A DNA stretch of 5,591 nucleotides. Origin: Amoebophrya sp. A120 (Eukaryota > Protista > Dinoflagellata). How positions within the stretch are numbered: position 1 is the stretch's first letter; the number at the start of each line of letters is the position of its first letter. The DNA is taken from NCBI GenBank assembly GCA_905178155.1, contig CAJINV010000004.1:1848181-1853771 (forward strand), read 5' to 3'. Below are positions 1 to 5,591 of the stretch, in pieces. The notes under the pieces were generated by a model. It did not search any database. It saw only the letters and a list, made by a program, of their open reading frames with translations, and was not told where the DNA came from. A program made the translations under genes and the position numbers.

Positions 1-124
1 TTCAATGCTTATCGCAGGAGCCTGCGGGCCGCCGCGGGCGACAGTAGTTGTCCGCGGCCCTTTAGGGCCGCGGGGAAGTGGTGGAGCCCGCGGCGGCCCG
101 CAGGCTCCTGCGATAAGCTTTGAA
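1..124. repeat. GC-rich inverted repeat with a nested hairpin
   Basis: Arms 1-39 and 86-124 are 38/39 complementary; internal perfect 10-bp stem ccgcggccct-TT-agggccgcgg at 52-73. May extend left of the window. Confidence 0.92.
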
Positions 125-2825: not shown

Positions 2826-2915
2826 ATGGTCGGTCCACCAGGGGAAGAGGGCGAGCAGGAAGCAAATGCAAAATCTTCTTCCAGCGCAAGAGGAAAGTCG
2901 TCGCCCCACGAGGTC
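2826..2915 (+). CDS. Exon 1 (MVGPPGEEGE...SPHEV)
   Basis: 30 codons from the ATG to the left direct-repeat copy aggtc (2911-2915); start codon choice is uncertain. Confidence 0.75.
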
Positions 2916-5552
2916 TATGGATTGCAAAAATGTCTGGGTCTGGAAAATTGCAATTTGTAATGCTGTCTTTGGATTCCAAAAGAATCTGTATTGCATGACC
3001 AGCAACAGGACTCCAATTTGTGTTACGCGGAGAGGGCATTTCTCATGCGGAATAGGCATTAGGAGGCCCTCTGAAAATCTGTGTTGCTAGATCATGCACT
3101 ACAGACATCACGGGTCATGCAAAATATGCATGACAAATCTTGCATCGATCCTTCCAGACCCACACATTTTTACATTTGATAAGGTCGACCACAGGCGTGC
3201 GCTGCTTGGCGAACGGGATTTACTCCTTCTAAAGTCCAAGATCGACATATCATGAGGAAAATGCCCCCTCCCCATATGGAAACGAAGTTTCTGATGCTGG
3301 ATTTCCATACACAAATCAGATTTGTCTTGCAGTAGAGGAATGCAGGCATATGTCAAGCCTCAGCCGAGAGGTTTTGACGTAGGCGCCTAGCATGACAAAC
3401 GTGTATGCTCTGAGCCAAACAGCATCACAAACCGCCTGAAAAATGCGGAACGCTTTGTGGACTTGCCTTCTTGCAAGACAGACAGGATTTGAGGTCAGGG
3501 TCACAAATGCGCATCACAAATTTTCAGACGGATACGATACGGCTTCGATATGGGGAGGGGGGATTTTTCCTTTTGATACGACAAGCTCCGGCACGAGGGT
3601 GCGCGGTTCCACTGGTATTATCCAGGAAAAAAAATTTGTAGGTGTAACTTTGTTGGAGGATTAGCATGACAAATATCTCCCGCATGACAGCAAAAACCAT
3701 GTCATGCGCAGATAGTACGGGAAAACGCCGCTGAATGGACCCTTAGATGCATGCCAAGCATGACAGGCTCAAGCAATTTGCATGTTGCGCATCACAAATT
3801 TACACTAACAACCTTTTTTTCTTGGATAGGAATGCAGCGGAATTTACCCTGACGCTGGCGAACTCCCCGGGGCGGGCGCAGGAGCTCATCATCGCTATCA
3901 AAATGAAAAATCCCCCCTCCCCATATCAAAACGGAAATCTGTGATGCGGGATTTGTGTACACAAATAACATTTGTCTTGCAGGAAAGCACTGCGCGCAGA
4001 TCGCAAGCCTAATGGGGGGCCTTTTGGTGTAGGGGCCTAGCATAGCAGACATCTGCCCTGTAGGCCTTACAGCATTACAAACCGCCTGCATATCGTGGCG
4101 GACTCTCTGGATTTGCCTTCTGGCAAGACAGACAGGATTTGTGGCCACAAATCTGCATCACAAATTTTCGGAGGGACATGTTTTCAATATGGGGAGGAAG
4201 GATTTTTCCTTACGATAATCGCCGCCCTGTCGGCGTACATCCTGGTATTCGCTTTGTTGATGAACTCGGTCGCAAGCAACGCATTTGTACCCGAAACCGA
4301 ATCCAAAGAGGAGCATTTTCCGATATGCATTGCAAATATGTCTGGGTCTGGAATATTGCCACCAGGTTTGTCATGCAATTTTGAATGACCCACGATGCTT
4401 GTAATGCATGACCTAGCATCACAGCTTTAGCTTTTTAGATGACGGCTTCCTGATGCCTATTCTGCATGATAAATGCCCTTCCCGCGTAGCACAAACTGTA
4501 CTCCTCTTCCACCTGGTCATGCAATACAAATTTTCTTAGGATCCAAAGACAGCACCACAAGTTGCAACCTTCCAGACCCAGACATATTTGCACTGGATAC
4601 CCGACCCGAGCCTTCAATTTCCTGCTGGCCTTCGTGTTCGCACTGTCTACGGCAAGCACTTTGTTTCTCACCTACATTCTCTCCGCGATCACGTTGGACA
4701 GCGAATTCGGTGCCTGGCGACAGCTACGCATTGCAAATATGTCTGAGTCTGGAATAAAGTTCGAACCTGTAAAAATGCAGGTCTTACATTTTTTCTGTGA
4801 AATCTGTACTATTGCGTGACCAACAAAACAAAGGCGCAGTCTCTTTCGTCATACAAAAACGCAGCTTCTTCTGCGAGCTGCGCATGACAAAGCATTCTGG
4901 AAAGTTGTCACGCTTGGCTGCATTCAGAACAAGTACAAGTGTATCAATCATCCACACTGTAGCATCACAAGTTTCCAGACCCAAACATGTTTGCATTGGA
5001 TAGCAGCTCCTGCGCTTCGAGCGGAACGCTGAGCTCTACGTGTGGCTCATGGCAGTCGCATATGGCGTTCTCAAATGTTACATTCTCGTCAACTGTGGTA
5101 TGAATTTGTAATGCAAGAACGGCAAAAGTTAATGGGGAAAGCTGGCGCCTTTTGCATTACAGATTTGGGACAGATTTACATGCTGTTTAGCCCCTTCGGA
5201 GATTTGTCATGCGAAGCAGCTTAAGGGTGGCGCTCTTGGTGGCAAATTTGCATGACAAATCATGTAACAGTTGAAAGCGTAACATTTGCGAATCCCATAT
5301 CGCGAACACCGCGGTTCTGGGACTCGTATGTTTTGCAAAAGTCTCGTACTCGTATAAATGCATTACAAATTTCCTCAGCATGAGAAATAAAATTTGTAAT
5401 GCTGATTTTCCTTGACGCAGGGATTTGTAATGCATGACTGCAATACGAGTGCGATACTTTTGCACAGGATAACTCGCCGCCGTCGGAAACGCGTTGACTG
5501 CCGAGCGGGCGCGGTATGAAAGTGCACAACTGCTCGTGCTCCCCCTTAACCT
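2826..5552 (+). CDS. Spliced gene for an uncharacterised multi-pass membrane protein (at least 9 exons, 3' end outside the window), interrupted by non-canonical TIR introns
   Basis: Manual join of 2826-2915, 3187-3247, 3584-3618, 3834-3895, 4223-4323, 4605-4724, 5008-5060, 5305-5326 and 5477-5552 (620 nt) is stop-free: MVGPPGEEGEQEANAKSSSSARGKSSPHEVDHRRALLGERDLLLLKSKIDKLRHEGARFHWYAAEFTLTLANSPGRAQELIIAALSAYILVFALLMNSVASNAFVPETESKEEHFPTRAFNFLLAFVFALSTASTLFLTYILSAITLDSEFGAWRQLLRFERNAELYVWLMAVANTAVLGLAAVGNALTAERARYESAQLLVLPLN. Three hydrophobic, helix-length segments. ATG 2826 has the context acaacATGG; in-frame upstream ATGs exist at 2787 and 2793. Junctions can slide within each 5-bp direct repeat. 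Confidence 0.88.
2916..3181. mobile_element. TIR introner/MITE-like intron A1 (266 bp, family A)
   Basis: TIRs 2916-2945 and 3152-3181 match 25/30; exact direct repeat aggtc at 2911-2915 and 3182-3186; ends TATG...GATA. Confidence 0.9.
3187..3247 (+). CDS. Exon 2 (DHRRALLGERDLLLLKSKID)
   Basis: 61 nt between insertions A1 and B1; continues the frame of exon 1. Confidence 0.82.
3248..3578. mobile_element. TIR introner/MITE-like intron B1 (331 bp, family B)
   Basis: TIRs 3248-3277 and 3548-3578 (core ccccctccccatat); exact direct repeat cgaca at 3243-3247 and 3579-3583. Confidence 0.9.
3584..3618 (+). CDS. Exon 3 (KLRHEGARFHWY/N)
   Basis: 35 nt between B1 and C; in frame. The last codon is TAT or AAT depending on the junction register. 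Confidence 0.8.
3619..3828. mobile_element. TIR introner/MITE-like intron C (210 bp)
   Basis: TIRs 3619-3653 and 3794-3828 match 29/35; direct repeat ggtat/ggaat (3614-3618, 3829-3833). Confidence 0.87.
3834..3895 (+). CDS. Exon 4 (AAEFTLTLANSPGRAQELII)
   Basis: 62 nt between C and B2; in frame. Confidence 0.82.
3896..4217. mobile_element. TIR introner/MITE-like intron B2 (322 bp, family B, same orientation as B1)
   Basis: TIRs 3896-3926 and 4187-4217 match 26/31; exact direct repeat atcgc at 3891-3895 and 4218-4222; colinear with B1 throughout (e.g. shared gcaagacagacaggatttg). Confidence 0.9.
4223..4323 (+). CDS. Exon 5 (AALSAYILVFALLMNSVASNAFVPETESKEEHFP), first hydrophobic segment
   Basis: 101 nt between B2 and A2; the predicted frame is the hydrophobic one also visible inside ORF 4095..4388. 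Confidence 0.87.
4324..4599. mobile_element. TIR introner/MITE-like intron A2 (276 bp, family A, inverted relative to A1)
   Basis: TIRs 4324-4353 and 4570-4599 match 28/30; direct repeat tccga/cccga (4319-4323, 4600-4604); its reverse complement aligns along A1. Confidence 0.9.
4605..4724 (+). CDS. Exon 6 (TRAFNFLLAFVFALSTASTLFLTYILSAITLDSEFGAWRQ), second hydrophobic segment
   Basis: 120 nt between A2 and A3; the predicted frame matches the hydrophobic part of ORF 4562..4819. Confidence 0.87.
4725..5002. mobile_element. TIR introner/MITE-like intron A3 (278 bp, family A termini, divergent interior)
   Basis: TIRs 4725-4754 and 4973-5002 match 24/30; direct repeat acagc/gcagc (4720-4724, 5003-5007). 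Confidence 0.88.
5008..5060 (+). CDS. Exon 7 (LLRFERNAELYVWLMAVA)
   Basis: 53 nt between A3 and D; in frame. Confidence 0.82.
5061..5299. mobile_element. TIR introner/MITE-like intron D (239 bp)
   Basis: TIRs 5061-5081 and 5279-5299 match 18/21 and extend with gaps to ~55 bp; direct repeat tcgca/tcgcg (5056-5060, 5300-5304). Confidence 0.87.
5305..5326 (+). CDS. Exon 8, micro-exon (NTAVLGL)
   Basis: 22 nt between D and E; needed to keep the frame, and it continues the third hydrophobic segment. Confidence 0.78.
5327..5471. mobile_element. TIR introner/MITE-like intron E (145 bp)
   Basis: TIRs 5327-5355 and 5443-5471 match 24/29; exact direct repeat actcg at 5322-5326 and 5472-5476. Confidence 0.9.
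5477..5552 (+). CDS. Exon 9 (AAVGNALTAERARYESAQLLVLPLN)
   Basis: 76 nt after E; in frame. Its end is inferred from the next TATG start at 5553. Confidence 0.75.
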
Positions 5553-5591
5553 TATGTTTGTCGTGCAAAATGCCAAATCCACACGCCGCCT
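5553..5591. mobile_element. Probable start of a ninth TIR intron (truncated by the window)
   Basis: Begins TATG, followed by tttgtcgtgc, a variant of the shared internal motif. The predicted direct repeat is aacct (5548-5552); the right end is not visible. Confidence 0.55.

Follow-up and report, generated by a model that had tools for sequence, protein, structure and literature searches.

Which bases are cut when an Amoebophrya intron lacks GT-AG ends? The removal of tens of thousands of such introns has been a problem open since 2021, and it is raised again by the stretch analysed here, hereafter the window: 5,591 nucleotides of DNA from Amoebophrya sp. A120, a parasitic dinoflagellate of the sea (contig CAJINV010000004.1, positions 1,848,181 to 1,853,771). 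When inverted repeats bordered by direct repeats were searched for, eight complete elements emerged between positions 2916 and 5471, all on the + strand of a single open reading frame (ORF); we call them, in order, A1, B1, C, B2, A2, A3, D and E. They are introner elements of the class already described by Farhat et al. 2021 (PMC7789003), and the register of their removal and a candidate branch A are useful additions to the picture of this known intron class. On balance, we favour removal at a fixed offset, from one base before the 5' TAT to four bases after the 3' ATA, whatever the end dinucleotides, with the G or C at position 4 of the element ends being a family trait. If such a ruler holds, it shows how a transposon becomes a harmless intron anywhere.

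The window DNA is of the A120 type, as exon 4604-4723 is 100% identical to P0001, a partial protein of 140 amino acids labelled Amoebophrya sp. A120. P0001 was the sole match among the 26 candidates for this comparison, and its match spans exon 3 to position 5514. The host gene (2826..5514, + strand) has its ATG at 2826, and the + strand is the sense strand, as it reads without stops once every element and one copy of its target-site duplication (TSD) are deleted. All elements begin with TAT (TAC in A3) and end with ATA, and the 5-bp direct repeats that flank them are perfect in four of the eight and share four of five letters in the other four. Between the two ends of each element, 15-20 of 21 positions pair, and the motif TAT + 7 nt + AAA is exact at six of the eight 5' ends, A3 having TAC and D its A-run two bases later. 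The ends pair strongly (z of -5.4 for C and -6.0 for D), as expected for terminal inverted repeats (TIRs). These features, like the organism label, are shared with the A120 introner elements, whose inverted repeats, in the available text of the 2021 report, begin with TAT and carry an A-run after seven bases, with direct repeats at the borders and repeated families (PMC7789003). That text gives direct repeats of 3-5 nt and an intron border whose position was unknown and variable in A120, whereas here the TSD is exactly 5 bp and the cut is narrowed to 1 or 2 nt ahead of TAT. As in A120 introner elements, removal with non-GT-AG ends is seen, at the B2, A2, A3 and D joints and at the C piece boundary described below. 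The elements are also of the type of miniature inverted-repeat transposable elements, being short (median about 260 nt), with TIRs, a constant 5-bp TSD, both orientations and many copies. No match was found between the window and viral contigs. TIR-flanked A120 elements with Copia/Gypsy-like ORFs have been reported, according to the part of that work available (PMC12130899).

The register of removal can be read directly from a 377-nt contig of run X5 (depth 4.3), whose four joints each skip an element plus 5 nt. The joint 3890-4218 skips 327 nt around B2 (TATC...GATA, 3896..4217, TSD ATCGC/ATCGC, predicted intron 3895-4221). The joint 4319-4601 skips 281 nt around A2 (TATG...GATA, 4324..4599, TSD TCCGA/CCCGA, predicted intron 4323-4603), and 4720-5004 skips 283 nt around A3 (TACG...GATA, 4725..5002, TSD ACAGC/GCAGC, predicted intron 4724-5006); in both cases, the contig carries the left TSD copy at position 1. 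For D (TATG...CATA, 5061..5299, TSD TCGCA/TCGCG with a mismatch at position 5, predicted intron 5060-5303), the joint 5055-5300 has four letters that could come from either side, and the fifth is that of the right copy alone, on the 27-nt side, giving GCG at position 5. As for C (TATC...GATA, 3619..3828, TSD GGTAT/GGAAT with a mismatch at position 3, predicted intron 3618-3832), the contig piece begins at 3832 and not at 3829, which places the left copy at TSD position 3 and yields TGG-TAT. P0001 agrees, reading W-Y at this junction. Both junctions had been predicted by the initial annotation, TGG-TAT at C and GCG at D, and both were found. A GT...AG register was available at C and would have given TGG-AAT; the contig excludes it. 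If the register is uniform, keeping three or four left TSD bases means that the intron starts two or one nt before TAT, a range bounded from below by C alone and from above by D alone. Given that uniformity, a start within these 1-2 nt is very probable, and we infer that it probably lies exactly one nt before TAT.

To extend these observations, related loci stand in for the A120 genome itself. A TIR-pattern scan that ignored positions 1-7 gave at least 142 loci, 141 of them from one record series, which were merged into 133 stretches totalling 635,989 bases. They hold the element families of the window, with up to 91.5% identity to A1 over 200 nt; these shared families are the link, and the organism may differ from A120. 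Two protein searches with ORFs of the loci, each scoring about 8,000 candidates, returned no match labelled A120. A first search for elements yielded 420 (340 in loci of 3 kb or more, against 3 in a shuffle control), and a second one, blind to positions 1-4, yielded 417, of which 403 were shared, for a union of 434. Among 289 strong TIR pairs, the TSD was a perfect 5-bp repeat in 75%, with other lengths at 9% or less, and 87 of the 420 elements, about a fifth, have a mismatched TSD; such mismatches let existing RNA-seq place the cut site genome-wide. Each window element has 5-68 relatives among the 434. A codon model applied to the flanks gave a confident sense orientation for 333 elements, the other 101 being dropped; near ORFs confirmed by Pfam, 19 of 20 calls agree. 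All 12 families with six or more members include both sense and antisense copies. Empty paralogous sites gave seven matches for six elements (in L008, L011/L028 and L049), and such presence/absence pairs are usable to date insertions.

In these loci, taking out the element plus 5 nt leaves the flanks in frame in 101 of 117 cases. At L071:6419-6676, an in-frame stop is avoided only if four or five left bases are kept, L008:14902 is consistent with two or more, and the codon likelihood summed over 61 mismatched TSDs peaks at three to four left bases kept.

What do the splice-site letters contribute? In the window, no register gives GT-AG at more than one of the eight elements, and in the related loci GT..AG occurs at 8 of 333 elements at the proposed register and at 11 at any register. 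The idea of a free +1 base was borne out, with G at 103, A at 93, C at 72 and T at 65 of the 333 elements. The accompanying claim of a kept +2T fared less clearly, being weakly suggested by the smaller number of first-T deviations at 5' ends. There is no proto-splice-site preference in the TSDs, whose bases show no bias relative to the codon-position background. In the portion of Table S4 of Farhat et al. available, all nine top A120 dinucleotide classes have +2T (PMC7789003). We considered this as support for the register and rejected it, since a simulated aligner seeking G,T..A,G on perfect TSDs reproduces these classes from random letters: seven of the nine are in its top 11, and 71% of its calls have +2T. 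The published diversity of dinucleotides is thus largely that of random TSD letters under a consensus-seeking aligner, which is neutral with regard to a fixed cut. The top A25 classes in the same table show a parallel pattern, all nine beginning with TT, and A25 inverted repeats begin with TTA (PMC7789003); the result would again be +2T/+3A, although the aligner may be what produces the pattern. As for canonical introns, 35% of validated A120 introns are GT-AG according to the available text (PMC7789003). De novo calling in our data had no resolving power for that class, the GG-AG and GT-AC controls yielding as many calls as GT-AG (52, 63 and 59).

The initial annotation had proposed, beyond the register, that the element ends carry a splice code. 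It had noted that 3' ends read GATA and that 5' ends often have G at position 4, and had attributed the asymmetry to transcription, with a relaxed spliceosome selecting +5G so that 5' ends favour G and 3' ends C. The counts themselves are largely right. Seven of the eight 3' ends read GATA, the exception being D with CATA, and position-4 G is present in five of the eight complete 5' ends, those of A1, A2, A3 (TACG), D and E. The ninth 5' end also reads TATG, so that six of nine stands, yet it most likely lies at 5515 and not at 5553, the TIR library being matched at 17 of 22 positions at the former versus 8 of 22 at the latter. A1 and A2 are indeed one family in opposite orientations (214 of 278 aligned columns identical), both reading TATG...GATA on the sense strand, and this pair, the 6/9 versus 1/8 counts and the success of both junction predictions speak for the code. 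The skew in the window nevertheless sits at the edge of significance in a Fisher test (p = 0.050), with p = 0.125 for the paired 4:0 split, and these statistics apply to a pattern chosen after the fact.

Canonical U2 donors do prefer +5G. In the related loci, though, position-4 G is found at 121 5' ends versus 133 3' ends (n = 333), with discordant pairs at 63:75 (p = 0.35). Similar counts are obtained over all 434 elements (155 versus 171), in the set of the first search (156 versus 160 of 420) and with orientation taken from neighbours only (109 versus 113 of 302). Had the real split been 60:40, with 10% of the elements misoriented, a count of 63 or below among the 138 would have arisen with P = 0.002. 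TIR positions 4-30 are likewise symmetric between 5' and 3' ends (n = 321). The letter follows instead the element family and the element end. In a 118-member family, G is present at 19 left versus 57 right ends, and within a given end, there is no effect of transcription (left, 7/41 at 5' versus 9/53 at 3'; right, 24/53 versus 21/41). A 58-member family has G at 16 versus 55 ends, and in several families all members are G/G or all are C/C. Of the ten elements closest to A1 among the 434, eight share its G end, two of these eight being oppositely oriented; A2 represents the less common type, in which G sits at the opposite end. Because position-4 G is symmetric and bound to the family end in the related loci, the TATG/GATA code is refuted there as a small-sample effect; symmetry of this kind was what the proposal itself had named as its refutation. 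The window skew is very probably chance or a family trait, and selection of +5G by the spliceosome is highly improbable.

D belongs to a family with G at both ends, as shown by its relatives in the related loci, and in E's family one end almost always has G. B1 and B2 form one family in equal orientation (244 of 333 columns identical), and A3 has an A-type TIR around a different interior. In A2, the TIR haplotypes look swapped relative to the interior when compared with most close relatives, and inversion or inter-TIR conversion is possible.

A resemblance to U12-type donors had also been suggested. The U12 donor consensus is RTATCC. TATCC is present at one of the nine window 5' ends, where it is preceded by T, and TATC-type ends are equally common at 3' and 5' ends. 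Such a likeness is unlikely to be meaningful, as U11, U12, U4atac and U6atac were not found in A120 by Farhat et al., going by the available text (PMC7789003).

Another asymmetry emerged at the very ends of the elements. Deviations from the terminal TAT number 2 at 5' versus 10 at 3' ends for position 1, 1 versus 5 for position 2 and 11 versus 2 for position 3 (n = 333). Restricted to the 317 elements of 120-400 nt (16 dropped), the difference gives a Fisher p of 0.0007 and a locus-flip p of 0.003, and with neighbourhood orientation the counts are 4 versus 13, 4 versus 4 and 12 versus 4 of 388 (p = 0.011). A3, with its 5' TAC, agrees with this trend. The position-1 component is mostly A-to-G at the 3' end, a change that keeps a U-G pair, and it can be read either as a requirement for +2U or as tolerance of U-G pairing. 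Position 3 appears more telling, since pairing alone would favour the reverse polarity, a U-G wobble over a C-A mismatch. Its polarity thus seems to run against both pairing and a uniform strand mutation bias, and it would point to the first A of the 3' ATA. Judging from sequence, this residue, located 7 nt from the predicted intron end, is a candidate branch A.

How might such introns be removed? The cut would be made at a fixed distance from the TIR hairpin, which may bring the intron ends together. The most likely agent, and the most speculative part of the scheme, would be a U2-type spliceosome that does not check for GT/AG. Its donor signal might be +2U and perhaps +3A, which the palindromic end would offer in either orientation, and for its branch point it might use the A that opens the 3' ATA, 7 nt short of the intron end. 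Most U2-type spliceosome proteins and the U2, U4, U5 and U6 small nuclear RNAs (snRNAs) are reported for A120, while U1 snRNA was not found, and a hairpin joining the exons together with an altered spliceosome without U1 was already proposed, as far as the available text goes (PMC7789003). Spliceosomal excision with a branch A at -7 is a plausible but uncertain prospect. The complete ruler code, in which the intron would start with N-U-A one base before TAT, use the leading A of the 3' ATA for branching and be cut 7 nt downstream of it, without any need for GT or AG, is more tentative still. If it were true, a TAT...ATA transposon with a 5-bp TSD could land anywhere, in either orientation, and be a perfect intron there, which would explain both intron invasion and the seemingly random splice-site dinucleotides.

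The same register could result from a different chemistry, namely structure-guided, non-spliceosomal excision as proposed for euglenids, in which an enzyme would measure from the base of the TIR hairpin and make staggered cuts without reading a donor or branch sequence. The strong end pairing, the tolerance of both orientations, the absence of GT/AG preference and the preserved U-G pairs at position 1 are all compatible with it, as is the failure to find U1 snRNA. Euglenid nonconventional introns also pair near both ends, close to the 5' end and with a longer unpaired 3' tail, have TSD-like repeats and lack GT-AG, as described in the available part of a published account (PMC11282704). According to the same account, however, they show CAG/CTG pairing at +4..6/-8..-6 and pyrimidine/purine junctions and are excised as circles (PMC11282704); here, TAT/ATA lie at the proposed +2..4/-7..-5, CAG/CTG pairing is absent and the junctions have no base bias. 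The position-3 polarity (11 versus 2) is contrary to pairing alone, and A120 has both U2-type machinery and the GT-AG share among validated introns mentioned above. We therefore regard this route as unlikely.

Several points weigh against a fixed, spliceosome-read register. The direct evidence comes from one contig of one run, whose RNA status is presumed, and P0001 may derive from the same RNA data; three raw RNA runs (X9-X11) contributed 0 reads, and no exon piece was present among the matches listed for X6-X8. Uniformity of the register across introns is an assumption. One case points the other way: for L011:2434, an empty paralogous site in L028 (83% identical) has the letter of the left copy at TSD position 5, as expected if the cut falls at TAT itself or if the exon has undergone a substitution. 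The symmetry test was run on the related loci and not on the window's own genome. The terminal asymmetry was noticed post hoc and draws on some 30 deviant ends; it is weaker over all 434 elements (7 versus 11, 6 versus 5 and 13 versus 4), position 2 is even under neighbourhood orientation, and some TACG ends look like one subfamily. Finally, a branch A located within the stem could act only after unwinding. An alternative is a loose register, in which both cuts would shift together within the TSD, to different positions in different introns, the terminal asymmetry being noise. The 'variable' borders of the 2021 text suggest such sliding (PMC7789003), a single intron sets each bound, L011 favours a cut at TAT, and per-position likelihood tests of the register are weak. 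Yet the four informative window junctions, L071 and L008:14902 all fit one register, a free choice would likely have taken GT-AG at C, and random TSD letters alone reproduce the published dinucleotide diversity. A loose register is accordingly quite improbable, and the fixed offset remains our preferred reading.

Transposon-derived introns with TIRs and TSDs are known elsewhere. In Polarella and Symbiodinium, introner-like elements likewise make introns, some in either orientation; their G[ACT]/AG splice sites are recruited from TSD letters, and their phase bias follows from this, as stated in the accessible part of the preprint (bioRxiv 2020.10.14.339549). The A120-type TSD, unlike theirs, has no splice-letter preference, which predicts almost no phase bias. 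Of 250 perfect-repeat cases in the related loci (L001-L142), 119 nevertheless have TSD base 1 in codon position 3 (66, 65 and 119 for the three positions), which at a 1-nt offset corresponds to phase 0. This bias is seen from either flank alone, and the target letters predict a share of only 0.34-0.35 for codon position 3; neither the TSD letters nor stops arising on retention account for it. A 25-nt profile predicting 0.40-0.42 was discarded as circular. Transposon introns of Fritillaria borealis similarly escape GT-AG with a U2-type spliceosome, but in the parts of the two reports available AG-AC and AG-AT dominate and U1 is conserved (PMC11282704, PMC13326754), whereas in A120-type introns only +2T is constrained among the end dinucleotides, and no U1 was found. 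We found no published work fixing the cut site or branch point of Amoebophrya introns, in a search that left most subscription journals outside its reach.

The remaining elements of the window, all on the + strand, conform to the same design. A1 (TATG...GATA, 2916..3181) is flanked by AGGTC/AGGTC, with a predicted intron at 2915-3185, and B1 (TATC...GATA, 3248..3578) by CGACA/CGACA, with a predicted intron at 3247-3582; for both, removal is deduced from the reading frame only. E (TATG...GATA, 5327..5471) has the TSD ACTCG/ACTCG and a predicted intron at 5326-5475. The match of the X5 contig stops at 5326 with three letters left over, and E's removal is otherwise supported by frame only. The likely ninth element (5515..5591) is represented by its 5' end (gTATGa), which matches the TIR library, and P0001 ends at 5514, immediately before it.

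The predicted product of the host gene is hydrophobic and likely a membrane protein, and no Pfam family scored above the cut-off. In the Atlas, it resembles unnamed eukaryotic clusters at 0.91-0.93; in one of them, 10% of the members are Orai-1, which we take as a lead only.

Upstream of the gene, no Pfam match was obtained for one minus-strand frame of 479-1036, nor any Pfam family above the cut-off in five frames of 1201-2241. Contigs of X5-X8 cover 479-1036 without differences at a depth of 6-87, and this region is likely a separate transcribed unit. The GC-rich region 1201-2241 aligns with contigs of X5 and X8 that differ from it by about 2-3%, suggesting a repeated element. GC-rich palindromes occupy 1-124 and 267-368. 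The former contains a 25/25 TAT...ATA inverted repeat at 10-115, whose arms extend past TAT and which lacks a 5-bp direct repeat.

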